Of a DNA stretch of 64,000 nt, positions 3,641-43,963 are shown piece after piece. A program made the position numbers and the translations under genes. The stretch lies in the IMG/VR virus record IMGVR_UViG_3300020724_000005; one strand, given 5' to 3'. The DNA comes from a virus. The notes beneath the pieces were generated by a model that had not been told where the DNA came from, did no database searches, and saw nothing but the letters and a program-made list of their open reading frames with translations. Positions within the stretch are counted from its first letter, which is position 1, and each line of letters opens with the position of its first letter.

Positions 3641-3835
3641 TTAGAGTGGAGTATTCATTCTCCATTCTATAGGTATCATCACTTTAAACTTTATCCTATC
3701 TTCTAACTTATCGTGCAGTGATCTTTCAAGATGACTTCGTGTTAGAGATCTGACCTTAAAATTGACATCTACCATGTTGACCATAGGTGTCCAGATCAAT
3801 AGCATGAGTTTATTTGTAAAATGGATCTTTTTCAT
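3641..3835 (-). CDS. hypothetical protein (64 aa)
   Basis: ORF track. Its start overlaps the stop of the upstream gene by 4 nt. Confidence 0.45.
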   Translation of the reverse strand: MKKIHFTNKLMLLIWTPMVNMVDVNFKVRSLTRSHLERSLHDKLEDRIKFKVMIPIEWRMNTPL

Positions 3836-10542: not shown

Positions 10543-10552
10543 TTTTATTTTT

Positions 10553-11245
10553 TTATAATTTTAAACAAAATAATCCATCTGGTCCGAAGTGTTTTATTTC
10601 ATATCCGTACTTAATAAAGATTTGTTCAAATATCGCTCTTTGTTCTGTATAACCAACTCCACCAACTTCGTGAAATTCAATTAAGATCTTAGAAACTATG
10701 TTACTCATAAAAGAGATTACGTCTTCATTTAAAGCTATTGTCTCTGATCCTTCAATATCCATTTTTATAAAATCGACCTTTTTTAATTTTAAAGATTGTA
10801 TAAGATCTTTTATCGAATAGCTATTAACTTCAAAACTATTTTCTCCTCTGTTAATAAGAGAATTCATTGTAGTATTTGAAAAAAAGCTATAAAAAATATC
10901 TGTTCCTGTTTTATTAGATATTGCACCTTGAATCCTATTTATATTCGAATATGATTCCGTCAATTTAGTCAATAGATTAAAATGATTAGGAGTAGGTTCA
11001 ACACAGTATATTTTTTTTGCCCATGGACTAATATGTAAAGCGAATAGACCGATATTTGCACCTAAATCTAATATAATCTTATCATTCTTATCTATAAATT
11101 TATTATAATAATCTTGATCATTAAATTGAGTTAATATCTCTTTAGTGCAATTTCTGGTATCATTAAAGTGATTTTCTAATTCTAAAGAATTTAATTCTAT
11201 AGTAATAATACTTCCATCTATTAATTTTAAATTTCTCTTATCCAT
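10553..11245 (-). CDS. FkbM-family methyltransferase
   Basis: ILDLGANIGLFAL, CVEPTP and FIKMDIEGSE. Confidence 0.85.
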   Translation of the reverse strand: MDKRNLKLIDGSIITIELNSLELENHFNDTRNCTKEILTQFNDQDYYNKFIDKNDKIILDLGANIGLFALHISPWAKKIYCVEPTPNHFNLLTKLTESYSNINRIQGAISNKTGTDIFYSFFSNTTMNSLINRGENSFEVNSYSIKDLIQSLKLKKVDFIKMDIEGSETIALNEDVISFMSNIVSKILIEFHEVGGVGYTEQRAIFEQIFIKYGYEIKHFGPDGLFCLKL

Positions 11246-11261
11246 TTTATAATTTTTTCAA

Positions 11262-11756
11262 TTAATTTTTTTGTCCCATTGCCATAAACGCATTATTCAA
11301 GTCAACTCCAGAATAAAATATATTACTATATTTTCTATCTTTCATATAATCTACTATAATCTCAGCAGTAAAGATGTTTAAGTGTTTTCTATTATTCCAT
11401 GGTCTCCAATATTCTTGAGAATAATCTGGAAGATATAAAAATAAAGTACCCCCTATTTTTAATTTAGAAGTCCAATAGTCTAGTACATCAACCCAATTTT
11501 GTAAATGTTCTAAACAATGAGATGAAAATACATAATCTAAATCTTTATGAGGAAAATTTAATGCATCATATTTGATATCAATTTCAGGATCTATAGGAAT
11601 AGCTCCAGGGAACTTCCATTCTAATCTATTACAACCTATATCTACTCCCTGTCCCTTACATACATGTTTAGCGTATGGTATTGCAAATTGTGCTGCATAT
11701 CCTTCTGATTGGAATTTTGGATATTCTTTTTCTTTATATTTTAAAGTTTCTATCAT
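11262..11756 (-). CDS. class I SAM-dependent methyltransferase
   Basis: GVDIGCN, DYVFSSHCLEHL and LKIGGTLFLYLP. Confidence 0.75.
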   Translation of the reverse strand: MIETLKYKEKEYPKFQSEGYAAQFAIPYAKHVCKGQGVDIGCNRLEWKFPGAIPIDPEIDIKYDALNFPHKDLDYVFSSHCLEHLQNWVDVLDYWTSKLKIGGTLFLYLPDYSQEYWRPWNNRKHLNIFTAEIIVDYMKDRKYSNIFYSGVDLNNAFMAMGQKN

Positions 11757-13467: not shown

Positions 13468-14250
13468 TTAGTTTATTTTATTTAGTTTACAATTATCAAA
13501 GTGGTATCTTTTCATATTTTGAATACTTCCTATTTTATCGCAGTAGGGGCATTCTATCTTTTTTTTAGGAATGCCTTTTGTAGCAGAACTAACAGCATCT
13601 TTAAATTCCTGAGAATGCTTTTTTCCTGTATGAGATAATCTTATTTTTTCTTTATGATCTTCTGTTAATTTTTTACCTAAACAATAAGAATTCCCCTTAT
13701 TAATAGATCTCATTAATTCAATCCACTCTTTAGATTTTTTTTCTCCCTTTTTAGAAATTCTATTAGCAAATCCAATTTTTTTCTTAGTTTCTTCAGATAT
13801 AGGATGACCTTTATGTTTATTTTTTCCAGTAATTATTTTACAATTATCAAAATGGTATCTTCTCATTGCTATATATCCTCCGACTTTATTACAATGAGGA
13901 CATTCAATTTTTCTTGTATTTTTTTCTACCATATTTTTAATTGATTCTATTGATTGTTTCAAACCTATTCCACCCTCTCCACCATCAGTTAAATTACATA
14001 AAGTACCCTCATTCAGATCTTTACGACCATATAGCTTTATGAATTCAACTTCTTTAGCACAAGCCTCTTCCCAAGTAAGATTATCAAGTATTATTTCTAC
14101 TTCATAGCCAAATTTAGATATATTACGCCAATGTTTAGTCCTATTATGAATAGAATATGCTCTTTTATACAAACCTTCAGTATCTGATCCTATTCCAATA
14201 TAAAAAGGTTCATTTTTGTCTAATCTTATATGTCTATAGAGATATGCCAT
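13468..14250 (-). CDS. GIY-YIG homing endonuclease with two CPxC..HFDNC zinc-finger modules
   Basis: YLYRH..FYIGIGS, CPHCNKVGG..YHFDNCK and CPYCDKIGS..YHFDNCK, plus NUMOD3-like repeats. Confidence 0.9.
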   Translation of the reverse strand: MAYLYRHIRLDKNEPFYIGIGSDTEGLYKRAYSIHNRTKHWRNISKFGYEVEIILDNLTWEEACAKEVEFIKLYGRKDLNEGTLCNLTDGGEGGIGLKQSIESIKNMVEKNTRKIECPHCNKVGGYIAMRRYHFDNCKIITGKNKHKGHPISEETKKKIGFANRISKKGEKKSKEWIELMRSINKGNSYCLGKKLTEDHKEKIRLSHTGKKHSQEFKDAVSSATKGIPKKKIECPYCDKIGSIQNMKRYHFDNCKLNKIN

Positions 14251-14286
14251 ATCTTTTTATTATAAATATCAGCATTTCTTTGTAGA

Positions 14287-19158: not shown

Positions 19159-19878
19159 TTAATAATATTTAAATCTTATTCCTTTTTTAATTAATAAATT
19201 CATTGTAGATTTGTGTATATGATTTATTATAGATGCAAGTTTAACAGAATCATATATTTCTCCGGTTTCTAAATTTATTACTTTTCTTCTATTATGCGCG
19301 GGTTTTCCAAAGTTATAATTTTTTTCTCCTTTTTTTAGATCACTCATTTTTTTTCTTGATTCTTCAGAATAATGTTTTCCTCTTTGAGCGTCACTTAATT
19401 TTTTCTTAGTCTCTTTAGATCGTTTTTTTCCTGTTAATGCTATACTTCTTTTTTTCTTAGTTTTTTCAGAACATGGTCCATTAGAAATTCCTTTATGAGA
19501 GATGCTAATTTTTCTTTTGTGATCTTCTGTTAATTTTTTTCCTTTATGAGTTTTACTTATAAGTCTTTTTCTTTCTTCTGTAAGTATAGACCCAAGCGCT
19601 CCATCTCCTCCATCTGTCATATTAACTAATGTCCCTTTTTTTAAATCTGCTCTGCCATAAAATATAATCCAAAATTTTTCTTTTTCACAAGATTCTTCCC
19701 AAGTTAACCATTCTTCTGAGATTATTTCTACTCTATAATCAGTAAGATTTACTATATTATGCCAGTATTTATTTCTATTCTTTTTTGTATGCGCTCTTTT
19801 ATAATTTTTATCTGATCCTATCCCGATATAGAAAACTTCATTCTTATCTAGTCTAATATGTCTATATATGTATGCCAT
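19159..19878 (-). CDS. GIY-YIG homing endonuclease
   Basis: Start moved to MAYIYRH, which sits in the CTTTTATTTTATG context shared by the six leader-bearing HE genes. YIYRH..FYIGIGS plus NUMOD3 repeats. Confidence 0.9.
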   Translation of the reverse strand: MAYIYRHIRLDKNEVFYIGIGSDKNYKRAHTKKNRNKYWHNIVNLTDYRVEIISEEWLTWEESCEKEKFWIIFYGRADLKKGTLVNMTDGGDGALGSILTEERKRLISKTHKGKKLTEDHKRKISISHKGISNGPCSEKTKKKRSIALTGKKRSKETKKKLSDAQRGKHYSEESRKKMSDLKKGEKNYNFGKPAHNRRKVINLETGEIYDSVKLASIINHIHKSTMNLLIKKGIRFKYY

Positions 19879-19997
19879 AAAATAAAAGTGGTCCAAAAAA
19901 TCTTCAGAGCTACGACCTTCTGAGATTGAATGGACCAATAAGTTTATTATAGATTACGTGTCGTAGTCGTAATATAATCTATAATAAATATCCAGCT
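19879..19997 (-). promoter_or_regulatory. structured HE leader, copy B
   Basis: P1 14 bp, 19943-19956 / 19975-19988. P2 TGGTCCA 19889-19895 / TGGACCA 19931-19937. L1 GTCGTAG 19960-19966 is complementary to CTACGAC 19910-19916. Confidence 0.6.
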
Positions 19998-22451: not shown

Positions 22452-22854
22452 CGTGTTGGGAAATTTCTATGAATTGTTTTATGAAGTCTATACCGTCTGT
22501 CTTCCTGTATTGCTCTAGGTAAAGTACGCGTTTTATACCGGACTGTAGTAGTAGTTTTGCACAGTCGACACATGGGCTGAGAGTAAGATACAATGTAGAT
22601 CCATCAACTGCATAACCAGATCTTGCCGCTTTAAGTATTGCTCCCATTTCAGCATGTACAACTTCAAGAACTGTTAATCCATTTCTTTCACAGCAGTTAT
22701 TCATTCCAGCTGGGGTGCCATTATATGACATACTAATAATATTACCATCTTTTACCAAAATAGCGCCGACTTTAGCTCTTTCGCACTTAGAAAGAGTTGA
22801 TATTTCTTTTGCTATATTAATGTATACCTGATCTAGTTGTTTTTGTGTGGGCAT
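22441..22854 (-). CDS. dCMP deaminase
   Basis: VHAEMGAI and LSPCVDCAKLL (HAE and PCxxC zinc motifs). Confidence 0.9.
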   Translation of the reverse strand: MPTQKQLDQVYINIAKEISTLSKCERAKVGAILVKDGNIISMSYNGTPAGMNNCCERNGLTVLEVVHAEMGAILKAARSGYAVDGSTLYLTLSPCVDCAKLLLQSGIKRVLYLEQYRKTDGIDFIKQFIEISQHDEI

Positions 22855-23393
22855 TTTCTACCTTTTATATAACCATCTGGAATTGGATCTCCATCTTTTA
22901 TTAATATACTACTATTTTCATTATAATACCACTGTTTTTTGGTATATTTTCTTGGTAATTTTGAAATTCTTTGAAGGTGTCCAGATTCAGCATTTTTTTT
23001 ACCTTGAACATGTCCTCCTTTTTTTCTAACTTCTTTTAATATTTCTGGATCAAAGAATGAATTAATCTTATTTTTTCTGCAAAATTCAGCTGATTTTTTG
23101 CCGGTTTCTTTTGGATTCATCAACAATCTAATTTTTAACATCCATCCAGATTGAGCGTTTTTCTCACCTTGCTTTTTGCCATTAATGGAACGAATTTTAT
23201 TTATTGCCTCTTCTACTGGTATTTGTCCGCATAAACACTTCCACGCAATATAATCATATTGATTTTTATTTTTTTCCCACAATAATCTATGTTCTTCAGC
23301 GTGCTCTGACAATGTAACTAATTTTATATTGCTTAGATCATCTGTACTTCCAGAGTGTCTTGGGACGATATGGTGTTTATATAATTTTTCCAT
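22833..23393 (-). CDS. HNH homing endonuclease
   Basis: HHIVPRHSG..DDLSNIKLVTLSEHAEEH. Preceded by leader copy C. Confidence 0.85.
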   Translation of the reverse strand: MEKLYKHHIVPRHSGSTDDLSNIKLVTLSEHAEEHRLLWEKNKNQYDYIAWKCLCGQIPVEEAINKIRSINGKKQGEKNAQSGWMLKIRLLMNPKETGKKSAEFCRKNKINSFFDPEILKEVRKKGGHVQGKKNAESGHLQRISKLPRKYTKKQWYYNENSSILIKDGDPIPDGYIKGRKCPHKNN

Positions 23394-25780: not shown

Positions 25781-26650
25781 TTACATCATTCCTCCCATAC
25801 CTTGAAGTCCATCTCCTGAGTTCTCTTCTTTTTTTGTATATTTCCAAATATATCCATAACAACTTTTTCTCTTATTAGAACAGACTGACGATATATGACT
25901 ATTATTTATTTTATAATATCTACGAATATCAGCAATACTATCCCAATTTTTAATAAACTCTCCATTTAATTTATATTGAGAAATTGGCCTTGATCTAGCT
26001 GATAATTTCCCTATTCTCCCAAACATAGGATTATTCTCTGCTATTCTTTTAGATGATGGATGATCTGCTCCTCTTTTACCAAACATGCCGTTTTTTTCCC
26101 CACTCTGCCCCTTTCCAAAATTTCCATGTTTACCATCCTTTATTAACTTAGCCATTTTATCTTTTCTCTCTTGTGTCCAAGAATCTTTAATTTTCTGTTT
26201 ACCTACATCAGACATCTTAGAGCCTTTAATAATTTTACTAACGTGATCTTTTCTTTCTTGAGTCCATGATAATTTTAAAATCTCTCTATTTTTTATAGAT
26301 TTATTTGGATGATTATCACCAGAAAACATCTTAATAAAAAGATCTCTTCTTTCTTGAGTCCATGGACTCCCTCCTCCATCACCACTCTCTAATTTAAGAT
26401 TAGCCCACTCTTTAGATTCTACAATATTAAATAATATAGAATAATATTCTCCTATCTTTTTAAGATCTTCTTTATCTTCAGTTTTGTGTAATATCCAAGT
26501 CTCAATATCTTTATTTGTAAAATTATGAAATTTAATATGATTTAACCACCTACTACCTGACCCTTTATATTTATATGGATCTTTTATAGTTTTTCCTAAA
26601 TATAGTAAACCAAGGGGGCTTCTTTTAACATAAATGTATATTAGTTTCAT
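25781..26650 (-). CDS. GIY-YIG-like homing endonuclease
   Basis: Start moved to MKLIYIYV (conserved ATG context). IYIYVKRSPLGLLYLGKT, three WTQER.D repeats, and an HTH-like C-terminus. Confidence 0.85.
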   Translation of the reverse strand: MKLIYIYVKRSPLGLLYLGKTIKDPYKYKGSGSRWLNHIKFHNFTNKDIETWILHKTEDKEDLKKIGEYYSILFNIVESKEWANLKLESGDGGGSPWTQERRDLFIKMFSGDNHPNKSIKNREILKLSWTQERKDHVSKIIKGSKMSDVGKQKIKDSWTQERKDKMAKLIKDGKHGNFGKGQSGEKNGMFGKRGADHPSSKRIAENNPMFGRIGKLSARSRPISQYKLNGEFIKNWDSIADIRRYYKINNSHISSVCSNKRKSCYGYIWKYTKKEENSGDGLQGMGGMM

Positions 26651-26770
26651 AAAATAAAAAGGTCCTATAAAAATACCAGCTCCGTAATAGCTAATAATTC
26701 TATGGACCAATAAGTTTTATTATAGATAAATGATTACGGCACTTTTCTATCTATAATAAATATCTATATT
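26651..26770 (-). promoter_or_regulatory. structured HE leader, copy D
   Basis: P1 26716-26728 / 26748-26760. P2 GGTCC 26661-26665 / GGACC 26704-26708. P2a AGCT/AGCT. L1 ATTACGG 26733-26739 is complementary to CCGTAAT 26692-26698. Confidence 0.6.
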
Positions 26771-28432
26771 TTACATTCCTAAATTCATTCCACCCAAAGA
26801 ATTTTCTGAGTCTTCTTGTTCCTTTTTAGATTTAATAGATAAAACCACCGATTCAACAGTCAAAACTGTACCGGCGACTCCGCTAGCATTCTTGATCGAA
26901 GACGTTACCACCTTTGTAGGATCCAAAAGCCCTGCTGCTATGCCATTGACTATGCACTTGTTCTTCGCATCATACGCAGTGAACTGGTCGTCTTTCTGGT
27001 TTATGCTGTGCAAGATCTCATACCAGTTGTCCATGCCTGCGTTTGAGAGTATCCTCTTGAAAGGCTCATGGCACGCCTCTTTGACTATCTTGAACCCGAT
27101 CTTCTCGTTCTCTTTCCAGTCCAGAGTCTTGCTGTTCATCGCTATGATCGCCTTGATCAAAGCCACACCGCCACCAGGAAGTATGCCATCTGCCAGTGCC
27201 GCCTTTGTTGCAAGCAATGCGTCTTCTACCCTGTCTTTCTTCTCCCTCATTTCGATCTCAGAGTTGCCTCCTACGTTGATGATGGCCACTCCGCCTATGA
27301 GCTTTCCAAGTCGTTCTTGCAGCTTCTCCTTCTCGAAGAAAGACTGAGCTTTGTCTATCTGATCTTTGATCTCCAGAGACCTTGCTTGTATCGTCTCTGC
27401 GTCTCCTTTGCCATCTACCATCGTCGTGTCTTCCTTGCTTATTGTAGCCAACCTTGATTTTCCTAAGAACTTATCCATGTCTTGGGGCGTTATCTTTTCA
27501 AGTTTGTGCCCTTTGCTCTTTGACATTACCGTTCCGCCAGTCAGTATCGCCATGTCCTCAAGAAGCAGCGTACGGCGATCACCGAAGTCTGGGGCTTTCA
27601 CCGCACACACCTTTACTACGCCTCTCATCTTGTTGACGATCATCAACGCAAGCGCCTCGTCTCCGTAGTCTTCTGCTATGATCAGTATGGACTTGTTCTC
27701 TGAGTTTGCTTTTTGCAAGAACGGTATGATCTCTGCTGCTGAATTTATCCTGCCGTCGAACAGCATGATGTAGCAGTCTTCGAGGATAGCGGTCATAGTA
27801 GTGTTGTTTGTCACGAAGTACGGGCTCTTGTATCCCCTGTCGAACTGCATGCCTTCTACCACTTCTAGCGTAGTCTCTCCTGTCTTTGATTCTTCTATCG
27901 TGATCAGACCTTCGCGACCTACTTTGTCTATTGCTGCAGAGATCAGCTCTCCTACCTCAGTGTCATTGTTGCCTGATATGGTCGCAACCTGCTTGATCTG
28001 CTCTTCTGTGCTCACGTCTACCGAGAACTTCTTCAGCTCTTCGATGACCATTGCTACTGCCTTGTCTATGCCAGCCTTGACCTCTACCGCATTGGTGCCT
28101 TGGCGGATCTCTCTCATTCCCTCTTGGATCATCTTTGTCGCGAGAAGAGTCGAAGTTGTTGTGCCGTCTCCAGCTTCGTTCGCTGATTTAATTGATACCT
28201 GCTTTACTAATTGAGCGCCGATATTCTCAATTTCATCTTCTAATTTATGGAAATTTTTTGCGACGGAAACTCCATCTTTAGAAATTTTAATTTCTCCAGT
28301 AGTAGAATCTACCAGTATTACATTTCTTCCGCCGGGTCCTAATGTTGAAGATACAGTCATATTTAGTTTTTCAATACCAACAAGAAGTTTTTCTTTTAGT
28401 TCTTGACCTGAAAGACTTTGTGTTTTACTCAT
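26771..28432 (-). CDS. groL: GroEL-type chaperonin (Cpn60)
   Basis: 553 aa. GPGGRNV, AGDGTTTSTLLA, GGGVALI and a C-terminal GGMNLGM tail. Confidence 0.95.
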   Translation of the reverse strand: MSKTQSLSGQELKEKLLVGIEKLNMTVSSTLGPGGRNVILVDSTTGEIKISKDGVSVAKNFHKLEDEIENIGAQLVKQVSIKSANEAGDGTTTSTLLATKMIQEGMREIRQGTNAVEVKAGIDKAVAMVIEELKKFSVDVSTEEQIKQVATISGNNDTEVGELISAAIDKVGREGLITIEESKTGETTLEVVEGMQFDRGYKSPYFVTNNTTMTAILEDCYIMLFDGRINSAAEIIPFLQKANSENKSILIIAEDYGDEALALMIVNKMRGVVKVCAVKAPDFGDRRTLLLEDMAILTGGTVMSKSKGHKLEKITPQDMDKFLGKSRLATISKEDTTMVDGKGDAETIQARSLEIKDQIDKAQSFFEKEKLQERLGKLIGGVAIINVGGNSEIEMREKKDRVEDALLATKAALADGILPGGGVALIKAIIAMNSKTLDWKENEKIGFKIVKEACHEPFKRILSNAGMDNWYEILHSINQKDDQFTAYDAKNKCIVNGIAAGLLDPTKVVTSSIKNASGVAGTVLTVESVVLSIKSKKEQEDSENSLGGMNLGM

Positions 28433-30581: not shown

Positions 30582-30811
30582 ATTCTTGTTATTAATTCAT
30601 GTCTATCAACTTTTTCATTGTATCGTAGAGTTGGCCATAAGCTGCTCATCATTTCATCATCACACATTATCTCCGAAGCAACTTCTCTGTCTATCCAAAT
30701 TCTATCGATAGCATATCCACAAGTATTACTGAGAACTAAACTTATACCATATTTTCTCCAGTAAGATTCTGTTATGATGAGTATTGTATATTTTCCTATT
30801 TTCTTAATCAT
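30578..30811 (-). CDS. hypothetical protein (77 aa)
   Basis: ORF track. Overlapping start/stop chain with its neighbours. Confidence 0.55.
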   Translation of the reverse strand: MIKKIGKYTILIITESYWRKYGISLVLSNTCGYAIDRIWIDREVASEIMCDDEMMSSLWPTLRYNEKVDRHELITRI

Positions 30812-31782
30812 TGTGGTTTGTGTTTATAGTTATTGTATTTCCATGTATATCCGCCAGCTTTTTTTCTTTTACCAATACAACATTTTTGAATATTGGTAGA
30901 ACATATATTTAGACTTTTTGCGGCTGTTGCCATGCATGTCCAAAGTTTTATATAATTTCCTTCTAAGTCAGATTGAATTATCTTAATCGCATTATGATTA
31001 TTATCACCAGTAGATCTTAATCGTAATTTTTCACGTTTTTCTGGGCTCTTATTCGGATTTTTATCTCCTATAAAATTTAGTCTACTTTTAAAAGTATTAT
31101 CTTCTTTTTTTATATATGATTCTTGATCGAAGTATTTCCATCTATAATTTCCAGAAATAGATCCATTCTTGATAGCAGCACATATATTAGAATTTTTAAG
31201 ATTTACAAATAAAGCAGCTTGTTTTAAAGAATCAAAATTTCTTATTTCATCTAAAGTGCTTTTATCTAGCATTATCACTTTTCTAGTATAATACTTTTTA
31301 TTTTTATTAGTCTCCTTTATTTTATCTAAACCCTCTTTTGTAATTATATGCTTTTTTCTCATCTTTAATTTCTGCTCTTCAGTTCTTTTTTTGCCTCTTA
31401 AGGCTAATCCAACTTTTGCAGAATGCTCTAGTGATTTTTTTACGCCACTTAAAGCTTTAGATATTGCTTTAGAGTGAGCTAATCTCGCTTCTTCATAACA
31501 TCTAGAAGATATTACTATCCAATGACACTTAGGAGTAGATCCTCTTCCTCTACACATTCTCCAAAAAGAAAATGCTCTAGCTGGTATTGATGGATTAATT
31601 CTATAAAGTAACCAATGAGCGATAAAATGTTCTCTGGCTGTTAGTTTAACTAAATTAGAATTATCATCTAATCCACCTTCTGATTTAGGTATAATATGAT
31701 GTTGTTCATAATATGGTAATATTTTACTATCTCTATTCTTTCCTTTTTCTATTAATAAATTATAATGTTTTTGATAATTCAT
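30808..31782 (-). CDS. HNH homing endonuclease
   Basis: EQHHIIPKSEGGLDDNSNLVKLTAREHFIAHW, NUMOD3-like repeats, and an HTH-like C-terminus. Confidence 0.85.
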   Translation of the reverse strand: MNYQKHYNLLIEKGKNRDSKILPYYEQHHIIPKSEGGLDDNSNLVKLTAREHFIAHWLLYRINPSIPARAFSFWRMCRGRGSTPKCHWIVISSRCYEEARLAHSKAISKALSGVKKSLEHSAKVGLALRGKKRTEEQKLKMRKKHIITKEGLDKIKETNKNKKYYTRKVIMLDKSTLDEIRNFDSLKQAALFVNLKNSNICAAIKNGSISGNYRWKYFDQESYIKKEDNTFKSRLNFIGDKNPNKSPEKREKLRLRSTGDNNHNAIKIIQSDLEGNYIKLWTCMATAAKSLNICSTNIQKCCIGKRKKAGGYTWKYNNYKHKPQ

Positions 31783-31839: not shown

Positions 31840-34182
31840 CTAATGCCCCTCTTTCCAATTTTTACATAATGTTGGAGGAGCTTTTAAGTCTATGCTTATC
31901 TTTGTAGTATTTTCCATACAATCTTTTACTATTTGCATTGCCTCTTGAGCTCTGGAAGACTCTACTTCAGTAATCGTCTGGTCATGAATTTGAGCTATAA
32001 CTAATCCATCAATCCCAACAGATTTTAGTCGTCTATTTATTTGTATAGCTGCTCTATTTACTATTGAGGCAGCTAATGACTGTATACAATAATTGCGAGA
32101 GTTATTGATGCCATTGACGTAGTCCCTGTATATCTTGGTGACTTTCTCCTTACCATATTGTTTAGATAGCATGTTTCTGATTTGCCAATCTGTGATGCCG
32201 TCTCCGAGAGAATCGTATATCTTCTTGACTTTGTCCAAGTGTCTGATGCGACCTACTTGGGTCTTGACGTATCCTAAGGTCTGGGCTTGAAGTTTTGAGT
32301 CTGCCATCCACTGCTTCAATGCTGGAAAGCCGTTGAGGTATCCATCGACCAAGACTTGTGCCTTCTTCTGTGGTATGTCAAGGTTCATTCCTAGCGCGTA
32401 AGCTCCCATGCCGTAAGGGATGCCTAGCGCGTATGCTTTGGCTTTGTTCCTGAGCTGCGGTGCATGCTTTCTGAGGAAGTTCTCTGCCTTTTTATCTGGG
32501 GAATATTGGCTGAGATGCTCTGTCTTTATCGCGATCGTAGAATAAAAATCCCAGTTATTTCTGAAGATATCCTTGAGTCCTTCGTCGCCTGAGACATGGG
32601 CGAACACGTGAGGCTCCAAAGACTCATAATCGCAATCCACAAAGTCATTGCCCGTGTCGGATATAAAGAACGCTCTCACCAGGTTCGTGTACTCTACTAC
32701 TATCGGATCGTCTTCTCCTTCCTCTTTCGGCCTTGGAAGCTGTTGCGCGTCTGAACCATATCTGCCTGATACAGTCCCGTGCTGTTTATAATAAAAGAAA
32801 TATCTGCCGTCCTCTTGTGCATCCAAAAAGCGATCCATGTATGTAGACTTGATCTTTAGCAGCTTGCCATATATCCTGAGCTTAGACGCCCAAGAGTGTT
32901 TGTCAGCGATGCTCTGGATCAGATCATCATCGAATTGGGGTTTGCCCTTCTTGGTCTGAGACAGGGGTTTTATCCCAAGCGCATTGAATGCTATGTCACC
33001 CATCTGGTCTTTGGACTGTATGTTGAAGAACGTGCCATCGTTGTCTTTCTTCCACAACTTCATGCTTATCTTCTGCAGGTCTATATCGTCTAAAAGAAAG
33101 TCGTGTCCTTCTGACAGAAATCTTTTAACTTGTGAATCTGGCAGTTTGGAGACAGTGGATTTAGTGATGCTGTATTTCCCTGAAGCCTCTGACTTTGGCA
33201 GGTCTAGTTTAAAGTGCTCTACAGCGGCCTGAGCAAATGATCCCTTGTTGCTCGGAGGATATGCCTCTATCGCCTTGCATACTATCCAGTCTTTGATTTC
33301 CTGTCTGCCCACGAGGTCCTCTACCACAAGATCGTAGTACCGTTTCATGTCAAGATCTATCCTCTCTCTCGATGACTTGATGGTATCGATGTCCAGCTTC
33401 ACGCCTTTGTCTTCCATTGGTATGGTGACTTCTCTGTAAAGGGGCATGACCTCGTCCACAAAGAAGAAGCCCTCTAGCCCCTCGTCCTTTATCTTCTGCA
33501 GGTAGTATTTGTATATCCTTAGAGCAAGATCGGTGTCTGCACATGCGTATTTAGAGAGGATGTCTATGTCCGCCTTCCATATCTCGTAGTTCTCCTTCGA
33601 TGTAGATCCGCCGTTTGCGTGTATCGACTCCTTGAGCTCTATCTGCTCCTTGTTCGCCTCAGTCTCGATATCAATACCGATCTCTGTCTGTATGCTCTTG
33701 GCGATCTCCTTCAACGCAAAGGTACCTGCTCCGTACTCAGCGTTTGCACCTTCCTCTTGGACTGTGTGTACCATGAGTATCGTGTCTGCATGTATCGAGT
33801 CTATGAGATCTACGCCGTAGAAGTTCTTGACAAATCTGGTGTCGAAAGAGAGGTTGTGTCCGATGAGCTTTTTTCCTACAAGCAGTGCAATGGCACGTTT
33901 GGCTATGTCATGGCATAAAATACCATCAATAGACGCATTCTGGAGCTCATCGTTGACAAATAACATCGTCGGCATATAGAAACCTAGACCAACTTCTCCT
34001 GAGACAGAGAAGCCTATTATCTTGCCTTTTCTGGGGTTTAGCGAGTTTGTCTCTGTGTCAAAGGATATGAGATCATGGCTCTGTATGTGAGCTATCATTT
34101 CCTTGACTTTCTGAGAAGTATCTACTTTCAAATATGTCCTTTGTGTCATAAACTTTATTCTTCTTGTATGGGAATAGCTCAT
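31840..34182 (-). CDS. polA: family A DNA polymerase with 3-prime-5-prime exonuclease domain
   Basis: Exo motifs FDTETNSL, HNLSFD, YACADTD. Pol motifs A DYESLEPHV, B RNKAKAYALGIPYG, C AQIHDQ. The start may instead be the internal MTQRTYL. Confidence 0.95.
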   Translation of the reverse strand: MSYSHTRRIKFMTQRTYLKVDTSQKVKEMIAHIQSHDLISFDTETNSLNPRKGKIIGFSVSGEVGLGFYMPTMLFVNDELQNASIDGILCHDIAKRAIALLVGKKLIGHNLSFDTRFVKNFYGVDLIDSIHADTILMVHTVQEEGANAEYGAGTFALKEIAKSIQTEIGIDIETEANKEQIELKESIHANGGSTSKENYEIWKADIDILSKYACADTDLALRIYKYYLQKIKDEGLEGFFFVDEVMPLYREVTIPMEDKGVKLDIDTIKSSRERIDLDMKRYYDLVVEDLVGRQEIKDWIVCKAIEAYPPSNKGSFAQAAVEHFKLDLPKSEASGKYSITKSTVSKLPDSQVKRFLSEGHDFLLDDIDLQKISMKLWKKDNDGTFFNIQSKDQMGDIAFNALGIKPLSQTKKGKPQFDDDLIQSIADKHSWASKLRIYGKLLKIKSTYMDRFLDAQEDGRYFFYYKQHGTVSGRYGSDAQQLPRPKEEGEDDPIVVEYTNLVRAFFISDTGNDFVDCDYESLEPHVFAHVSGDEGLKDIFRNNWDFYSTIAIKTEHLSQYSPDKKAENFLRKHAPQLRNKAKAYALGIPYGMGAYALGMNLDIPQKKAQVLVDGYLNGFPALKQWMADSKLQAQTLGYVKTQVGRIRHLDKVKKIYDSLGDGITDWQIRNMLSKQYGKEKVTKIYRDYVNGINNSRNYCIQSLAASIVNRAAIQINRRLKSVGIDGLVIAQIHDQTITEVESSRAQEAMQIVKDCMENTTKISIDLKAPPTLCKNWKEGH

Positions 34183-35396: not shown

Positions 35397-36143
35397 TTAA
35401 ACCTTGCTTATTATTATTTTAAAACCTTCATAATTTGACTTTTCTATTTTAGAAGATGTCAATATTATCTCTCTTATTCCAGATCTGATTTTATTCATAT
35501 CTCCAAAATTAATCTTTAACTCTTTCTTTGCTGTTGTTATTTTATCAAATTTCTTTATTAGATCTCCATCTTGATTATATAAATATGCAAATCCTAACCA
35601 TTTATAATTCTTATCTCCTTTTTTACATTCACTCCATTTTTTCCTATATTCTGGATTACTAAGTATATCTTTCATTTTATCTGAGAATTTTTTTAGATTC
35701 TCTTCATTTTTCCAATATGCATCCACTCCATTTTTTACGCTAGTTCTATACTCATCGTCTTTCCATAAATTTTTAGAAATATCAACAAATTTATGTCGTA
35801 AAATATCTTTATTAGTATTTGATGCATTTCGTAATTTTTCTCTATGCTCTTCTTTATTTGGATGATTTGTAAAATTATCTCCACCATCCCCTCCTGTAGA
35901 AATATTATAACCAATTTCTGGATTTGTAGAATTATAATAGCTGATCCAATATTGCTCTTTTATATTTAATTCCTCAATAGAAGAGCTATGATCTAATACG
36001 CCCTTTTTGAACTTATCTCGACCATAGCTCTTTATAGCATCTTTTATTTTTACTCCAGATCCAAGATAGCTTGGATCATTTTTTGTGTCTTTACCTATAT
36101 AAATTTTTCCTGATTCTAAATTTGTAGTCTTATAAATTATCAT
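35397..36143 (-). CDS. GIY-YIG homing endonuclease
   Basis: IIYKTTNLESGKIYIGKD. AT-rich. Lies directly downstream of the RNR C-terminal fragment. Confidence 0.85.
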   Translation of the reverse strand: MIIYKTTNLESGKIYIGKDTKNDPSYLGSGVKIKDAIKSYGRDKFKKGVLDHSSSIEELNIKEQYWISYYNSTNPEIGYNISTGGDGGDNFTNHPNKEEHREKLRNASNTNKDILRHKFVDISKNLWKDDEYRTSVKNGVDAYWKNEENLKKFSDKMKDILSNPEYRKKWSECKKGDKNYKWLGFAYLYNQDGDLIKKFDKITTAKKELKINFGDMNKIRSGIREIILTSSKIEKSNYEGFKIIISKV

Positions 36144-36188: not shown

Positions 36189-36872
36189 TTATATATTAAT
36201 TTCACAACTATTTCCAGCACACGCAACTTGGTCCTTAAGGTCTGTGTTGTCTTCTGCCTCTACCACCAAGCTCAGATCTATGTTAGAAAGCGACTCCATC
36301 ATTTTTTCGTAAGTCTCTTTATCGCAGTCTTGGAAAGGTGCCTGAACGTAGGTGTGGTCTGAGAATGGCAGCACTGAAAGCCCGTTGTAGCAAGTCCTGT
36401 TCTCCCACATCCACTCTCCTACAGTGTCCCACTCTCCGTCCTTTATAGAGATCGTGGCCGAGATGTTGTGTGTGTTCTGTCCTGTCTTGTGTCCTGGTTT
36501 GATCCAGTTGTTGTAGAAGTATTTTACCCTCTCGAGCAGATCTATCGCTGACTCTGTCCTCAGTATCGAACCCTCTGGCGCTTTCTGTGGGACCGAGATG
36601 ACTGCCGTGCTGTGGGGCTTGAAGTACTCGTCCTGTATCAGCTCTGGGTGGTATATGCTCAGGTACGTGTATATGGCCTCGTTCTTGCCAACTCTTATGT
36701 TTCTGATGTAGTACTCGCTGTGCCACGCATGTATGCCAGAAGATGTGCCCAGGACTAGAGAGGAGGTATTATGAACCACAGATTTATTTTTTAGTTGATA
36801 TGAATGAGTATTATCTACTTCTATGTCAACAGTAAATTTATTTCCAGACTTTGTTATTTTTTTAATTTTCAT
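36189..36872 (-). CDS. nrdJ: class II ribonucleotide reductase, C-terminal fragment fused to a C-intein
   Basis: The first 35 aa (MKIKKITKSGNKFTVDIEVDNTHSYQLKNKSVVHN) look like intein blocks F and G. The extein resumes at TSSLVLGTSSG. Confidence 0.9.
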   Translation of the reverse strand: MKIKKITKSGNKFTVDIEVDNTHSYQLKNKSVVHNTSSLVLGTSSGIHAWHSEYYIRNIRVGKNEAIYTYLSIYHPELIQDEYFKPHSTAVISVPQKAPEGSILRTESAIDLLERVKYFYNNWIKPGHKTGQNTHNISATISIKDGEWDTVGEWMWENRTCYNGLSVLPFSDHTYVQAPFQDCDKETYEKMMESLSNIDLSLVVEAEDNTDLKDQVACAGNSCEINI

Positions 36873-38007
36873 AATATTTAATTAATTCTATTATATTTTC
36901 TAATACTAATTGCTTATTTTTTAAATAATTTGATTCTTTAACTCTAATTAAATTTAATCCCATATTAGCATATATCTTATCCTTTAATCTATCTCTCTCT
37001 ATATTATTAGGTAAAGAATGCCAATAATCTCCATCAAATTCAATTACAGTATTTCCTATTTTAATGTCTGGTACTATACACTTTATTTGATAATCATTCT
37101 GGTTTAGATTTATAAAATAGGGTTTTGTTATTGGGTAACCAAAAAATACCTCTTTTTGTTTATTGTTTAATAAATCATATAGTGATAAATTAAAATCTTT
37201 TTCTATATTTGAACTAAAATCTGGAAAATAACTAATTTTCTTTTTTATCATATCAGAATATAAATTCCGACCCTCTACTTCTCCAAATTTATCTATATAA
37301 TATTCTAATCTTCCAGATTTTCCTTTACTATAACATAATTCTTTATATCTATTTAAGCCTTCAATTTTTCCAAATTTAGAGATATAATAGTCTTTAGTCT
37401 GTGAATATGCTATTTTTTTATTAGCCTCATCATATTTTTCCTTTCCTATATTATCACCATACTTTTTTATATAATAATCTAACCCTCTTGATTGATTCTT
37501 ATTAACAAACTGTTTAGCTTCTAATTCACTTACTCCATAATATTTCATTACAGATTTATAATCTCTACAAGAATACCCACTGTCTATTTTCTTTTTATAT
37601 CTTAATCTACCCTCTTTTTCTCCATATTTTTTTATCATGCTTTCCAAGTCAGTCTTTGAATTAATAGAGTGTTTTGCTTTAATGTCTTTTATTTCATCAT
37701 CACTATATCCATTTAATTTTAAAGCATTTATACTAACTGAAAGTTTACTATTTTTTTCTAAATATTCCTCTCTACCTAACTCCTCCCCGTATCTTTTAAT
37801 GAATCCATTTAGGGTATTTTTAAACTTATCATTTTCTATTTTTTGTTTATATTTAAATAAGCCTAACTCTTTTCCGTATTTAAACTGTAATACTTTTAAA
37901 GAAGACCCTCGCATTAAATTTGCACATCTCTTGTTGCCCCCCTCTTCTCCAAGTAGATGAATCAGTAGTCGTCTCAGTCTATTAATCTTTTTTATATCTT
38001 TTTTCAC
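36862..38007 (-). CDS. free-standing homing endonuclease, Vsr/DUF559-like PD-(D/E)XK domain
   Basis: Six K(Y/F)G.E.G...Y repeats. C-terminal VIEFDGDYWH...RD..KD. GTG start at 38007. AT-rich. Confidence 0.8.
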   Translation of the reverse strand: MKKDIKKINRLRRLLIHLLGEEGGNKRCANLMRGSSLKVLQFKYGKELGLFKYKQKIENDKFKNTLNGFIKRYGEELGREEYLEKNSKLSVSINALKLNGYSDDEIKDIKAKHSINSKTDLESMIKKYGEKEGRLRYKKKIDSGYSCRDYKSVMKYYGVSELEAKQFVNKNQSRGLDYYIKKYGDNIGKEKYDEANKKIAYSQTKDYYISKFGKIEGLNRYKELCYSKGKSGRLEYYIDKFGEVEGRNLYSDMIKKKISYFPDFSSNIEKDFNLSLYDLLNNKQKEVFFGYPITKPYFINLNQNDYQIKCIVPDIKIGNTVIEFDGDYWHSLPNNIERDRLKDKIYANMGLNLIRVKESNYLKNKQLVLENIIELIKYYEN

Positions 38008-38008
38008 A

Positions 38009-38058
38009 ATTAAGCCTTTTATTATAAATATCTGATTAATTACAATAATAGGCTTAAT
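38009..38058 (-). promoter_or_regulatory. hairpin enclosing the ATATTTAT motif just upstream of the GTG start
   Basis: Stem ATTAAGCC 38009-38016 / GGCTTAAT 38051-38058. The loop contains TTTTATTATAAATATCTG. Confidence 0.45.
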
Positions 38059-38071
38059 AGTAAAAATTAAT

Positions 38072-39682
38072 CTAATAATTTATAATATCATCATCATCCT
38101 TCAATTCGTCTGCTCTAACCCACCCCCTATTTTTAGTTAAAAACCTATGATTTGCTGTAACTGTAACTACCAAACCATCTTCAAACTCCACATCAAACGT
38201 TTCTTCTACTCCATTAATGTATAATTTATTAATTTGTTGCCATTCATCATTTAAATCTTTGACTTTTATATCCTCTGTTACTTCTAAAAATAGCTTTTCG
38301 TTATTTTTAAAATCAGATAAGTCATATCCATTGATTTTAAAAATATCCTCTAATGAGAGAATACCTTTATTTGTTATTATTTCAGTTTCTGGTATCATGC
38401 ACCCACTCGGTTTTATTGTAGTGCAACGGGCTGCTGCGTTTATCCCTACCGCTTTCGCTACTGCTGCGTTCGTCTCTTTCACTATGAGAGCGGCCTTTTT
38501 AAGATCCAGCTTCTGAGCAACTCCTGACCCTATTCCAGTCATTCCTACTCCTATTAGTGCTTCTTTCTCTGTAGTCTTCTGCCATATTGGTCTGAGATAG
38601 TGAAAGTTAGTGTATCCTGCTTGTAAAGTCCCTATTATCGCTGCTGCATTTACTCTGTCATTAAGATCTTCTTGGTCTACTACGTCTGAAACATTTACCT
38701 CGCAAAGGTTGCAAAATTGATATGGTCTTAGTGCAATTTCCATACAAGGATTACTTCCTAAATCTTTATCATTACTAAGAAATATACCCGGTTCTCCTGA
38801 TCCCGAGTTCTCAATCTTCTTCCAGAGATCCATAAAGAATTCCTTTGTAAGTCTATTCCTTAAAAGTACAGCCGAGTTATTCGCTCTACCCCTTTGCGGA
38901 TTTAATTCCCACCATTGACCAGTCTTACAAGAGATCATATCCTCATCGTCAGCTGAGAATAGTGATACTAATGCCGCTCTCCTTATACCCCCAGCAAGTA
39001 CTGCATCAGCTATGTGGCAGACCATGTCGTGAACCTCTATCGAGCTGAGTTTATCTCCATCCTCTTTCTGGCTGAGTATTCCATCTAACATTAGTAAGCA
39101 CTCTTTCAGTGGTTGAGGACCTGGAGCTTTACCGCCAGAAGTAACTAGCATTGCTCCTTTTGGACGTATGTCAGAGAAGTCAAAGTTAATCGATGATCCA
39201 CCTCTGAAATAGGACTTGATCAGGGCTTTGACTGCGTCTGCCCAACCCTCTATCGAGTCTCCTATCAGGAACCTTGTGTGCTTCTTTGGGTTCGGTTTCC
39301 TTATCTCTGGCAGCTTCTCAACGTGGTGCTTCTGTACAGAGAAACCTACTCCCGTGCCACCAAGCAGCAGGAACATCGTCTCAGAGAAAGCGTGTATGTC
39401 GTCTATAGGAAGGTACGCGCAGTTATACACTCTGTTAGGAGATATCTCTATCGACTTTCCACCGAACTGCAGGCTCCTCATAGAAGGAAGCACCTTTTTA
39501 TCATATACGAATTCATAAGCCCAGTCTATCTCAGCTTGCATATTGGGATATTTCTTGAGATGCATTGCCTTGTTTCTGTCTACCAATTCTTCCCAAGACT
39601 CTCTCTTCTGTAGTTCTGGGAGGTATTTGGAATATTTTAAGTGTACTGTAATATCTGATAATATTTCCTGTGAGATATTCAT
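38072..39682 (-). CDS. nrdJ: class II ribonucleotide reductase, N-terminal fragment fused to an N-intein
   Basis: GGTGVGFS, GGIRRAA, SNPCMEI and TTIKPSG, followed by the 109-aa intein N-half (Cys1, TxxH block B) and a stop. Confidence 0.9.
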   Translation of the reverse strand: MNISQEILSDITVHLKYSKYLPELQKRESWEELVDRNKAMHLKKYPNMQAEIDWAYEFVYDKKVLPSMRSLQFGGKSIEISPNRVYNCAYLPIDDIHAFSETMFLLLGGTGVGFSVQKHHVEKLPEIRKPNPKKHTRFLIGDSIEGWADAVKALIKSYFRGGSSINFDFSDIRPKGAMLVTSGGKAPGPQPLKECLLMLDGILSQKEDGDKLSSIEVHDMVCHIADAVLAGGIRRAALVSLFSADDEDMISCKTGQWWELNPQRGRANNSAVLLRNRLTKEFFMDLWKKIENSGSGEPGIFLSNDKDLGSNPCMEIALRPYQFCNLCEVNVSDVVDQEDLNDRVNAAAIIGTLQAGYTNFHYLRPIWQKTTEKEALIGVGMTGIGSGVAQKLDLKKAALIVKETNAAVAKAVGINAAARCTTIKPSGCMIPETEIITNKGILSLEDIFKINGYDLSDFKNNEKLFLEVTEDIKVKDLNDEWQQINKLYINGVEETFDVEFEDGLVVTVTANHRFLTKNRGWVRADELKDDDDIINY

Positions 39683-41407: not shown

Positions 41408-42127
41408 TTATATATTTGGTTTTTTATATTTGCACTTATCAAAATGCCACTGAGTCATTCCGTTATTTCCTCCAATTTTATTACAATGCGGACATTGTAT
41501 TTTTGGATTTTTTATTCCTAATCTATTAGTATTTCCTATTTTAGATATGCTCAATTTTCTTTTATGTTCTTCTGATTTAGATTTTCCCTTAAGAGCTCTG
41601 CTAATATTTGCCTTCTCTAATTCTGATTTTACTCTATTTTTTTGACCTTTAGAAATTGATTCTCTATGTTGTAAAGATAAACATATCCCTAATTTAGATT
41701 TTCTTATATTTAATTTAGTTTCTTCTGATCTTACTTTTCCCGTATTCGATTCTTTCATCTTTTTTTTAGTATCATCAGAAACTAAATGGCCTTTTCTGGA
41801 TAATCTATATAATCGTTTTGTTTCTTCAGAATGTTTAAAACCAAATTGACCTTGTCCACCATCTGTCATATTAACTAAAGGTCCCAATTTAAGATCTGCT
41901 CTTCCATAGAATATAATCCAAAATTTTTCTTTTTCACAGGCTTCTTCCCAAGTTAACCATTCTTCTGACATAATTTCTACTTTATATTCTGTAAGATTAA
42001 TCACATTATTCCAATGAATATTTCTGTTCTTTTTTGAATAAGATCTTTTATAGTTTTTATCTGATCCTATTCCTATATAAAAAACCTCATTCTTGTCTAG
42101 TCTTATATGACGATACACATATGCCAT
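41408..42127 (-). CDS. GIY-YIG homing endonuclease with CPHC..HFDKC zinc-finger tail
   Basis: Start moved to MAYVYRH. FYIGIGS, NUMOD3 repeats, and C-terminal CPHCNKIGG..WHFDKCK. Confidence 0.9.
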   Translation of the reverse strand: MAYVYRHIRLDKNEVFYIGIGSDKNYKRSYSKKNRNIHWNNVINLTEYKVEIMSEEWLTWEEACEKEKFWIIFYGRADLKLGPLVNMTDGGQGQFGFKHSEETKRLYRLSRKGHLVSDDTKKKMKESNTGKVRSEETKLNIRKSKLGICLSLQHRESISKGQKNRVKSELEKANISRALKGKSKSEEHKRKLSISKIGNTNRLGIKNPKIQCPHCNKIGGNNGMTQWHFDKCKYKKPNI

Positions 42128-42236
42128 AAAATAAAAATGGTCCAAAGTGACAAAGAGCCTGCATGCTCTCTATCTCAAAGGACCAATAAGTTCTATTATA
42201 GATAACTCATGCAGGAGCTTCTATCTATAATAAATA
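42128..42236 (-). promoter_or_regulatory. structured HE leader, copy E
   Basis: P1 42194-42204 / 42222-42232. P2 TGGTCC 42138-42143 / GGACCA 42180-42185. P2a AGAG/CTCT. L1 CATGCAGG 42208-42215 is complementary to CCTGCATG 42158-42165. Confidence 0.6.
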
Positions 42237-43279: not shown

Positions 43280-43843
43280 TTAATTTTTATATTTACAATT
43301 ATCAAAATGCCACTGGATCATATTACTCTTATTTGCTATTTTTTTACAATGCGGACATTGGGCCAAAGGCCTATTTTTAGCAGATTCACTTTGTGCAATT
43401 TTAGTTTTTTCTGATGTTTTTAATTCTTTATTCCACGTATTCATTCCAATGAAAAATGATCCTGAATTTACTTTATGTGGAAATTTTTTATCTTTATTCC
43501 ATGGAATTCTATTTTTAATACTTTCAATATAGCATTGTTTAGCTTCTACTGATATTCTTATACTATGTCTACCTGTATTTTTATCTTTAATGCACATTAA
43601 ATGAAAAGCATATGTTAATTTTTTATTTTCAGGAAAACTTCTATGTAATAACCAGTGCGCTAATATATGCTCTCTAATAGTTAATAAAACTATATTTTTA
43701 TTGTTTGTATTTCTTCTATCACCAATTCCTCCCAAACATATTGGCACTATGTGATGAGACTCGTAATAAACCTCTTTATTTTTTGTTCTTTTCTCCAATT
43801 TACATTTGCAGACTAATCTATTATATATTTTTAAGTAATCCAT
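43280..43843 (-). CDS. HNH homing endonuclease with CPHC..HFDNC zinc-finger tail
   Basis: Start moved to MDYLKIY. ESHHIVPICLGG....N..NIVLLTIREHILAHW. C-terminal CPHCKKIAN..WHFDNCK. Confidence 0.85.
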   Translation of the reverse strand: MDYLKIYNRLVCKCKLEKRTKNKEVYYESHHIVPICLGGIGDRRNTNNKNIVLLTIREHILAHWLLHRSFPENKKLTYAFHLMCIKDKNTGRHSIRISVEAKQCYIESIKNRIPWNKDKKFPHKVNSGSFFIGMNTWNKELKTSEKTKIAQSESAKNRPLAQCPHCKKIANKSNMIQWHFDNCKYKN

Positions 43844-43963
43844 AAAATAAAATGGACTCATTGAAGTCAAAGGTCGGGCAATGACCAATGATTCTAGAGT
43901 CCAATAAGTTTATTATAGATAGTTAATTGCCCTAACTTTCTATCTATAATAAATACTTGATTT
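43844..43963 (-). promoter_or_regulatory. structured HE leader, copy F
   Basis: P1 14 bp, 43909-43922 / 43940-43953. P2 TGGACTC 43853-43859 / GAGTCCA 43897-43903. P2a GGTC/GACC. L1 ATTGCCC 43926-43932 is complementary to GGGCAAT 43876-43882. Confidence 0.6.

Follow-up and report, generated by a model that had tools for sequence, protein, structure and literature searches.

The nrdJ locus

We analysed a 64,000-nucleotide stretch of viral DNA (IMG/VR virus record IMGVR_UViG_3300020724_000005; hereafter the window, to which all unlabelled coordinates refer) in which nrdJ, a gene for a predicted class II ribonucleotide reductase (RNR), is broken in two by the halves of a split intein, between which lies a free-standing endonuclease gene. 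The locus occupies 36189-39682 and holds three open reading frames (ORFs), all on the minus strand and each in its own frame: ORF1 (38072..39682; 536 amino acids), which reads ...TTIKPSG and then continues as CMIPETEIIT...TANHRFLTKNRGWVRADELKDDDDIINY to a stop codon; ORF2 (36862..38007; 381 amino acids from a GTG start), which contains K[YF]G repeats and the string IEFDGDYWH; and ORF3 (36189..36872; 227 amino acids), which opens with MKIKK...SVVHN and goes on with TSSLVLGTSSG. The ORF list reproduced exactly the positions and sequences that had been given for these three frames in an earlier reading of the DNA made without database searches (below, the sequence-only reading). ORF1 and ORF2 are separated by a 64-nucleotide, AT-rich spacer packed with stop codons, which together with the use of three frames rules out a single base error as the cause of the break. 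The last 11 nucleotides of the endonuclease ORF (36862..36872, minus strand) are also the first of the C-intein ORF, its ATG included. Across 36701-38400 the G+C content (GC) is 0.21-0.29, as compared to 0.45-0.49 in the adjoining exteins, and the AT-rich cassette is thus compositionally foreign to nrdJ.

The enzyme itself is interrupted at a single peptide bond. The nrdJ N-extein (38402..39682, minus strand; residues 1-427) ends in TTIKPSG and matches PF02867 and PF21995, the latter an RNR model, at 29.4 bits against a cut-off of 27; the C-extein (36189..36767, minus strand; residues 428-619) starts with the +1 Thr of TSSLVLGTSSG, is collinear with the unbroken alleles of relatives, and ends with the Cys pair CAGNSC. 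Aligned to phrog_367, the PHROG RNR profile, residues 4-428 of ORF1 cover profile positions 30-520 and residues 36-226 of ORF3 cover positions 520-697; since both alignments reach position 520, the extein parts abut at one profile position, and the boundary at which the sequence-only reading had the extein resume after a 35-residue C-intein is exact. The spliced product assembled in silico is 619 amino acids long, about 70 kDa, and matches TIGR02505 (RTPR) with E=2.4e-84, and the thiyl-radical motif SNPCMEIAL (NPCME) lies unbroken in the N-extein. We infer from these features that the enzyme is a class II RNR of the monomeric, RTPR-like type, for which B12 dependence is predicted. With a slash marking the insertion point, an intein-less nrdJ target reads ...ACTACAATAAAACCGAGTGGG/ACCTCCTCTCTAGTCCTGGGC..., and the window site rebuilt without the element reads GCACTACAATAAAACCGAGTGGG/ACCTCCTCTCTAGTCCTGGGC. 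We rejected a group I intron as the interrupting element: a search of all 64 kilobases (kb) of the window found no Rfam family, hence no group I intron, and intein halves are present in frame.

The split intein

The N-intein half (38075..38401, minus strand) comprises 109 amino acids from Cys1 to ...DDDDIINY, followed by a stop codon at 38072-38074; the C-intein half (36768..36872, minus strand) comprises the 35 residues MKIKKITKSGNKFTVDIEVDNTHSYQLKNKSVVHN. The N-half scores 34 bits with the NCBIfam intein_Nterm model TIGR01445 (cut-off 24.5). Catalytic residues are retained throughout the family: an alignment of 11 relatives, some split and some contiguous, shows no variation at Cys1, T82-x-x-H85, the block F Asp125 or the final H143-N144, in keeping with the N-intein, with its Cys1 and TxxH block, that had been proposed for the end of ORF1. 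When the halves are fused in silico, their alignment to contiguous mini-inteins from this site is collinear, and the split falls in a variable linker. A family profile built from 11 sequences (split alleles fused in silico, and contiguous relatives) matched 32 chains in the PDB at E<=1e-3, all of them inteins except for one bacterial intein-like domain, with Npu DnaE as the best match (1e-9). In seven alleles (the window and the related loci L001, L081, L084, L085, L002 and L003), which represent four diverged lineages with identities to the window of 40-91% in the N-half and up to 97% in the C-half, the 109/35 split point is kept in all, as are C1, T[AP]NH, DIEV, HN and the +1 Thr (7/7). The two halves carry net charges of -13 and +4, respectively. 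By its sequence the element belongs to the class 1 (HINT) inteins, with every residue expected for splicing chemistry in place.

The sequence-only reading had noted a close resemblance between the ..TKNRG.VRADEL.DDD.. tail and NrdJ-1, which is a fast trans-splicing tool. That likeness holds for the tail: TKNRGWVRADELKDDDD matches NrdJ-1 through the common motif TKNRG(Y/W)VRADEL.DDD, and it is the only close stretch the two have in common. Aligned globally, the N-half is 35% and the C-half 42% identical to NrdJ-1, values that do not exceed those for IMPDH-1 (38% and 41%); the NrdJ-1 reference sequence was checked against a PDB alignment and published text. NrdJ-1 (PDB 8ubs) is the best single-sequence match (E=1.6e-6) because of the common tail, and with the family profile it ranks, at 8.6e-6, under the Npu DnaE (1e-9), DnaB, RecA and gp41-1 inteins. 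Like the window intein, NrdJ-1 (PDB 8UBS/9OMB) is class 1 and split at the canonical site (105/40 in NrdJ-1, 109/35 in the window); the two differ in host site and junction residues. NrdJ-1 and NrdJ-2 are inserted at NPC/SEI, one residue past the thiyl-radical Cys (Dassa et al., 2009; Pinto 2020 supplement), whereas the window intein sits at PSG/TSS, some 115 residues beyond an intact SNPCMEIAL. Judged by its different insertion point and low intein identity, the window element is neither NrdJ-1 nor an allele of it.

The insertion site is absent from the nrdJ and nrdA sites of Dassa et al. (2009) and from the table of sites in the supplement of Pinto 2020. A literature search found no mention of an RNR intein site at KPxG/T or PSG/T; the InBase and Pietrokovski databases were beyond its scope, and these may hold an earlier listing of the site, above all for contiguous inteins.

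The endonuclease gene

ORF2 (minus strand) has a GC of 0.25 and encodes a protein of two parts: an N-terminal repeat region (37228..37911; residues ~33-260) with about eight tandem helix-pair repeats of ~29 amino acids, and a C-terminal Vsr-like (EDxHD) nuclease domain (36865..37140) with residues D314, E323, D325, H330 and D339. We collected 154 homologues, many of which match PF18741 or PF04480 (DUF559). A profile of 37 of the sequences found I-Bth0305I (3r3p) as its best PDB match (E=3.2e-6), followed by a DUF559 protein and, weakly, Vsr. E323, H330 and D339 do not vary among the 37 homologues, D314 is conserved in at least 90% of them, and these four residues align with VDF (D314), IEV (E323), WHS (H330) and NKDK (D339) of I-Bth0305I. 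The AlphaFold2 (AF2) model of the protein, with a predicted local distance difference test score (pLDDT) of 90, shows an alpha/beta nuclease domain that Foldseek matches to 3r3p with probability 1.00 and a template modelling (TM) score of 0.76, normalised to the target; in BFVD, Aeromonas phage Aes123 supplies the best match, a putative VSR endonuclease (E=1.8e-10). The free-standing Vsr-like nuclease proposed for the middle of the locus is borne out by these EDxHD residues, the fold and the 3r3p match, and we predict that ORF2 is an EDxHD (Vsr-like) homing endonuclease that cleaves DNA.

The repeats (..YYIKKYGxxxGxxxY..) recur at a spacing of 26-29 residues by regular expression and are all-helical in the AF2 model; the region has no Pfam model and no significant fold match in the PDB. 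From the known architecture of the EDxHD family, the K[YF]G array is presumed to be the DNA-binding part. One repeat copy, KYYGVSELEAKQF, resembles EKYGVSDVAIQRW of I-Bth0305I, with no significant alignment and no match to a Pfam NUMOD model. A similarity to PPR repeats, obtained with phmmer for the whole endonuclease against the PDB, was discarded, as it consisted only of summed weak matches to designed PPR proteins, which we take to be artefacts of repeat composition.

I-Bth0305I (Taylor et al., 2011; Nucleic Acids Research (NAR) 39:9705) has the same Asp/Glu/His/Asp Vsr-like nuclease at its C-terminus, preceded, as is presumed for the window protein, by a DNA-binding region. It differs in that full-length BLASTP between the two is not significant (E=0.32), in having two NUMOD-like helix-turn-helix motifs (Taylor et al., 2011) where the window protein has about eight K[YF]G repeats of 29 amino acids, and in being intron-encoded, whereas the window gene is free-standing within a split intein. 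A 2025 survey still cites the 2009 paper of Dassa et al. as the only report of Vsr-like endonucleases associated with inteins.

Hairpin and promoter-like motif

The spacer forms a predicted RNA hairpin (37996..38071, minus strand) in whose 3' arm the endonuclease gene's AAAGG ribosome-binding site and GTG start codon are tied up in base pairs. The hairpin has a minimum free energy of -23.6 kcal/mol (z=-5.9), with none of 200 shuffled sequences equally stable, and it persists in L081 and L084, where the differences are wobble changes and one compensatory change. Within the hairpin loop and 3' arm lies the motif ATATTTATAATAAA (38018..38031, minus strand), which, with up to two mismatches allowed, matches at 33 places in the window, as compared to 2.5 expected. 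Copies stand 5-25 nucleotides upstream of most endonuclease genes and of some ordinary genes, minus-strand examples being those at 14256, 21761, 31789, 36150, 38018, 42224, 43909, 58541 and 62017. The motif looks like a candidate phage promoter, comparable to the late element TATAAATA of T4 and Aeh1. A scan of the window for sigma-70 promoters and terminators gave counts no better than shuffled sequence.

Empty sites, selection and signs of homing

Using ORF1 as a query against IMG/VR we retrieved 80 related viral loci, in which extein, intein and endonuclease were then sought one by one with tblastn. The gene is unbroken in 76 of the 80, reading TT[VI]KP[AS]G-T[TS]SL.LGTSSG across the site; three (L001, L002 and L003) are fractured at the same Gly/Thr bond, and one contig ends before it. 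The 76 uninterrupted, intein-less relatives, such as L010 and L004, define the insertion point to the residue and mark the interruption as an insertion rather than a lineage-specific architecture.

The ratio of non-synonymous to synonymous substitution rates (dN/dS), taken against L084, indicates purifying selection on all five parts: the N-extein has a value of 0.02, the N-intein 0.10, the C-intein 0.05, the C-extein 0.03 and the endonuclease 0.16 (range 0.16-0.17). Identity to L081 is a mosaic. At the nucleotide level the window and L081 are 90.2% identical in the N-intein, 91.0% in the spacer, 91.1% in the endonuclease gene and 97.1% in the C-intein, as compared to 71.9% in the C-extein (570 nucleotides); the first 30 nucleotides that flank the junction to left and right stand at 90-97%, and beyond them extein identity is ~60-80%. 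A cassette far closer to its counterpart than its flanks are, with short co-converted margins, indicates recent homing.

Other alleles at the insertion site

A word-indexed protein search with the N-intein alone gave one weak match, and an exhaustive HMMER search was used instead; it returned 729 cluster representatives at E<=1e-3, 102 of them at E<=1e-10. Among the best 150 of the 729, the N-half stands at the C-terminus of the protein in 120, which are on that ground taken to be split, and 91 are preceded by [KA]PxG/C; others read PTAS/C or APTG/C, apparently the equivalent motif of other RNRs. The KPxG/T site also holds contiguous mini-inteins of ~150 amino acids, and in a second IMG/VR scan many loci had a full Vsr-like endonuclease gene between the intein halves. 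The same intact arrangement occurs in at least eight independent assemblies (JGI, ENA and NCBI), among them a 309-kb NCBI contig from a very different genome whose endonuclease is 41% identical to that of the window and has the same nrdJ arrangement; another homologue, 57% identical, lies beside an N-part of 1222 amino acids that also has a LAGLIDADG intein.

The related contigs cover every stage from empty site through contiguous intein and fractured gene to a decaying and finally an absent endonuclease. In L103 a contiguous mini-intein has the linker ...TEDDDI-MKIVKK..., whose Met shares an alignment column with the initiator Met of the split C-halves. In L001 (L089 denotes the same contig) only the last 68 codons of the endonuclease gene are left (7608-7846); ~940 nucleotides have been lost between two AGATATT copies, of which one lies in the promoter-like motif and the other at codons 313-315, and L001 and L081 have intein halves that are 100% identical. 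The endonuclease of L003 (7645-8709) reads NYHGDFWH, with the Glu and the Asp replaced, and is probably inactive. The endonuclease homologues of L002 and L003, which occupy the same site, are 27-32% identical. In L113 (~3830-4770) the endonuclease that lies between these intein halves is of the HNH type. Split inteins with no endonuclease are found in L092, L093/L127, L098, L105 and L116/L117, where spacers of only ~30-90 nucleotides separate the N-half stop and the C-half start, the two lie in different frames, and both halves are intact.

A further arrangement is seen in L081 (5552-9819), L082 and L083 (JGI samples 3300025401, 3300025413 and 3300006103), where nrdJ is in three pieces. These loci have the KPSG/T split intein with its endonuclease and also a second split intein, not present in the window, at NP/C, right before the thiyl Cys; its C-half (..SNEDVYDISMKKNHNFFANGLLVHN) is NrdJ-1-like, 23 of 40 residues being identical to NrdJ-1, and an unannotated ORF of 99 amino acids lies between its halves. 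With two split inteins in one nrdJ, one RNR would need two trans-splicing events.

Among isolate phages, a nucleotide search gave only ~65% matches, to extein parts, from which it appears that no cultured phage carries the locus, and protein searches with the endonuclease and the N-intein found distant relatives only (25-41% identity). In Salmonella phages S16 and STP4-a, N-intein-like matches near 105361-105600 (H20-H27) run across the boundary of genes annotated 'DNA helicase (uvsW_1)' and 'hypothetical protein'; these S16-like loci may be unannotated fractured genes. In uncultured phage LR756500.1 (462 kb; 257675-259033) an N-intein match adjoins a match to this endonuclease family. The label 'recombinase' is attached to nrdJ-homologous sequences in Vibrio phage vB_VpaM_VPs20 (22036-23020) and Oceanospirillum phage PD0307, and to phrog_18112, which matches the C-intein (ORF3 residues 1-39); these labels are probably annotation errors.

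Genomic surroundings

The window contains at least ten free-standing homing endonuclease genes in 64 kb, each in a low-GC island (0.23-0.30) amid genes of normal GC. On the minus strand these include GIY-YIG (phrog_314) genes at 2028..2675, 13468..14250, 19159..19938, 35397..36143 and 41408..42145, phrog_655 genes at 22833..23393, 30808..31782 and 43280..43888, and an HNH gene at 25781..26710. L081-L083 lack the two endonuclease genes that flank the nrdJ/helicase block, and the neighbouring genes abut there. One further low-GC island (7683..11756; GC 0.25-0.29) holds no endonuclease genes; its six ORFs include FkbM-type and other methyltransferases and a weak glycosyltransferase match. Most genes of the window have no Shine-Dalgarno sequence. 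By DNA polymerase the nearest cultured relative is Flavobacterium phage vB_FspM_immuto (PolA, 53% amino acid identity), with which the window also shares PolA-GroES-GroEL synteny (31840..34182 for PolA, and 26771..28432). The scarcity of Shine-Dalgarno sequences, the PolA identity and this synteny point to a large myovirus with a Bacteroidota host.

Discussion

A broken gene, intein halves on the two fragments, an endonuclease gene between them, a hairpin before its start and an overlap after its end are the features by which Dassa et al. (2009; NAR 37:2560) defined fractured genes, and all of them are found in the window. The NrdJ-1 and NrdJ-2 loci of that study, from Lake Gatun, are the closest parallel: they concern the same enzyme class (class II RNR) in a phage context, with the same order of N-extein plus N-intein, free-standing endonuclease, and C-intein plus C-extein, the same overlap of the endonuclease gene with the downstream ORF, and a hairpin before the endonuclease start. 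The authors reported overlaps of 6-69 base pairs in 15 loci, described the combination of start hairpin and downstream overlap both for fractured genes and for Aeh1 mobE, and noted for NrdJ-1 an acidic N-half and a basic C-half, a polarity that recurs in the window. The loci differ in insertion site (NPC/SEI in theirs, PSG/TSS here), in the +1 residue (Ser and Thr, respectively) and in the motif within the hairpin (TATAAATA and ATATTTATAATAAA, respectively), and the window adds 64 kb of genomic context and a full allele series. In cyanobacterial DnaE (Npu/Ssp) the split is at an equivalent position (102/36) and the C-half is similar (MIKIATRK..DIGV..HNF.LKNG..SN); there, however, the halves lie at distant chromosomal loci of a cellular host, with no endonuclease between them and with Cys at +1. 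The gene for the RNR large subunit, nrdA, of Aeromonas phage Aeh1 is likewise broken by a free-standing endonuclease gene, mobE, whose start is sequestered in a hairpin with a late-promoter element and which overlaps the downstream ORF (Gibb and Edgell, 2007; Crona et al., 2011); Aeh1 differs in having no intein, in the non-covalent assembly of its fragments, and in an endonuclease of the HNH type.

The junction, intein blocks, hairpin, ORF overlap and intein-less alleles of relatives all speak for the fractured class II RNR gene that the sequence-only reading had proposed. We consider it highly probable that the locus is a fractured gene as Dassa et al. (2009) used the term, that active RNR would be made by protein trans-splicing, and that the cassette spreads by endonuclease-driven homing. 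To judge by the related alleles, such a locus probably arose from a monomeric-type class II RNR gene that had a mini-intein in its conserved KPxG/T motif; a free-standing Vsr-like endonuclease gene would later have inserted into the linker that joins blocks B and F of the intein, breaking gene and intein into two ORFs. A single transcript would carry all three ORFs, with the RNR fragments translated separately; the acidic 109-residue N-intein and the basic 35-residue C-intein would then associate, and class 1 trans-splicing (Cys1, TxxH, block F Asp, terminal His-Asn, Thr+1) would join Gly427 to Thr428 to give the 619-residue enzyme. On read-through transcripts the hairpin would lock the ribosome-binding site and GTG of the endonuclease gene and keep it silent, and transcription from the promoter-like motif in the hairpin would yield a shorter RNA with the endonuclease start free. 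In a mixed infection the endonuclease would cut nrdJ alleles that lack the intein, at the insertion site or close by, and repair would copy the whole cassette, with ~30 nucleotides of flank, into the cut allele.

Several observations weigh against this account or limit it. A number of general models fall short of their thresholds: Pfam Intein_splicing (PF14890) gives 23.9 bits on the window protein (gathering cut-off 35.8), PF18741 (MTES_1575) gives 35.8 bits on the endonuclease (gathering cut-off 38.2), and the RTPR model TIGR02505 gives 283.8 bits (cut-off 340). The AF2 model of the fused intein, made from a single sequence, is uninformative (pLDDT 40.8). The covariation of the hairpin comes from three sequences only, and ATATTTATAATAAA differs from the TATAAATA of Dassa et al., so that its promoter role is putative. 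The C-intein ORF has no Shine-Dalgarno sequence, which is unremarkable where most genes of the window have none and the nearest cultured relative is a Flavobacterium phage. The low synonymous divergence of the AT-rich cassette possibly reflects, in part, compositional constraint, and composition may exaggerate the contrast between cassette and flank somewhat. Trans-splicing is a prediction from the conserved residues and from purifying selection; DNA cleavage, for which the mosaic of identities gives indirect support, and the timing of expression are likewise predicted.

Among other explanations, the RNR fragments might assemble non-covalently and be active with no peptide bond between them, the intein halves serving as mere affinity domains. 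Crona et al. (2011; PMC3045599) provide a precedent, in that the fragmented NrdA of Aeh1 is active without splicing, and the opposite charges of the window halves (-13 and +4) would favour simple association. The Aeh1 fragments, however, have no intein. Association alone would require none of the splicing residues, yet these are invariant at N-half identities down to 40% and in contiguous relatives, in which splicing is obligatory, and the break sits within the conserved KPxG/T motif. We regard assembly without splicing as improbable.

It is still less probable that the endonuclease insertion inactivated nrdJ and left the fragments as decaying pseudogenes. Phage RNR genes that were broken by mobile elements and are apparently degenerating have been reported, for example in Campylobacter phages, and the window is saturated with endonuclease genes; decay, however, is hard to square with dN/dS values of 0.02-0.03 in the exteins and 0.05-0.10 in the intein halves, with the freedom from internal stops and frameshifts, or with an intact layout in at least eight independent assemblies and in split alleles that have no endonuclease. 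That the break is an artefact of sequencing or assembly, the real gene containing a bifunctional intein in one piece, its endonuclease domain in frame, appears the least credible of all and close to negligible. Contiguous inteins are indeed known at this site, but here the three parts lie in three frames around a 64-nucleotide spacer filled with stops, the endonuclease has a ribosome-binding site, start codon and hairpin of its own, and independent JGI, ENA and NCBI assemblies show the identical architecture.

Fractured genes, split inteins and EDxHD endonucleases are already known; new here are an insertion site other than those of the published NrdJ and NrdA fractured loci, the +1 Thr, the long K[YF]G array, the full genomic context and the allele series. 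The 2009 definition of fractured genes and of their endonuclease family was drawn from short marine and lake reads, and the window provides a complete locus in a 64-kb phage context. An intein with Cys1 and Thr+1 would leave a Gly-Thr junction, and its diverged relatives, of which there are hundreds, are candidates for orthogonal trans-splicing tools; inteins with Thr+1 are often slow. A more far-reaching view, which we put forward as a rather unlikely one, is that the window is one allele of a very large and apparently uncatalogued KPxG/T lineage, with a new mode of recognition by ~29-residue repeats, persistent splits and an RNR made from three polypeptides. Were this so, the endonuclease would recognise its target by a new, possibly modular, tandem helical K[YF]G array, the split state would outlive the endonuclease in several lineages, and close relatives, which combine a window-type intein with an NrdJ-1-like one, would offer natural orthogonal split-intein pairs ready-made. 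For nrdJ itself, the locus represents a second insertion site, very common in metagenomes and much commoner than the published one, and the series of alleles at this one site, which includes a different endonuclease family, makes the proposed cycle of gene-breaking and homing directly testable.

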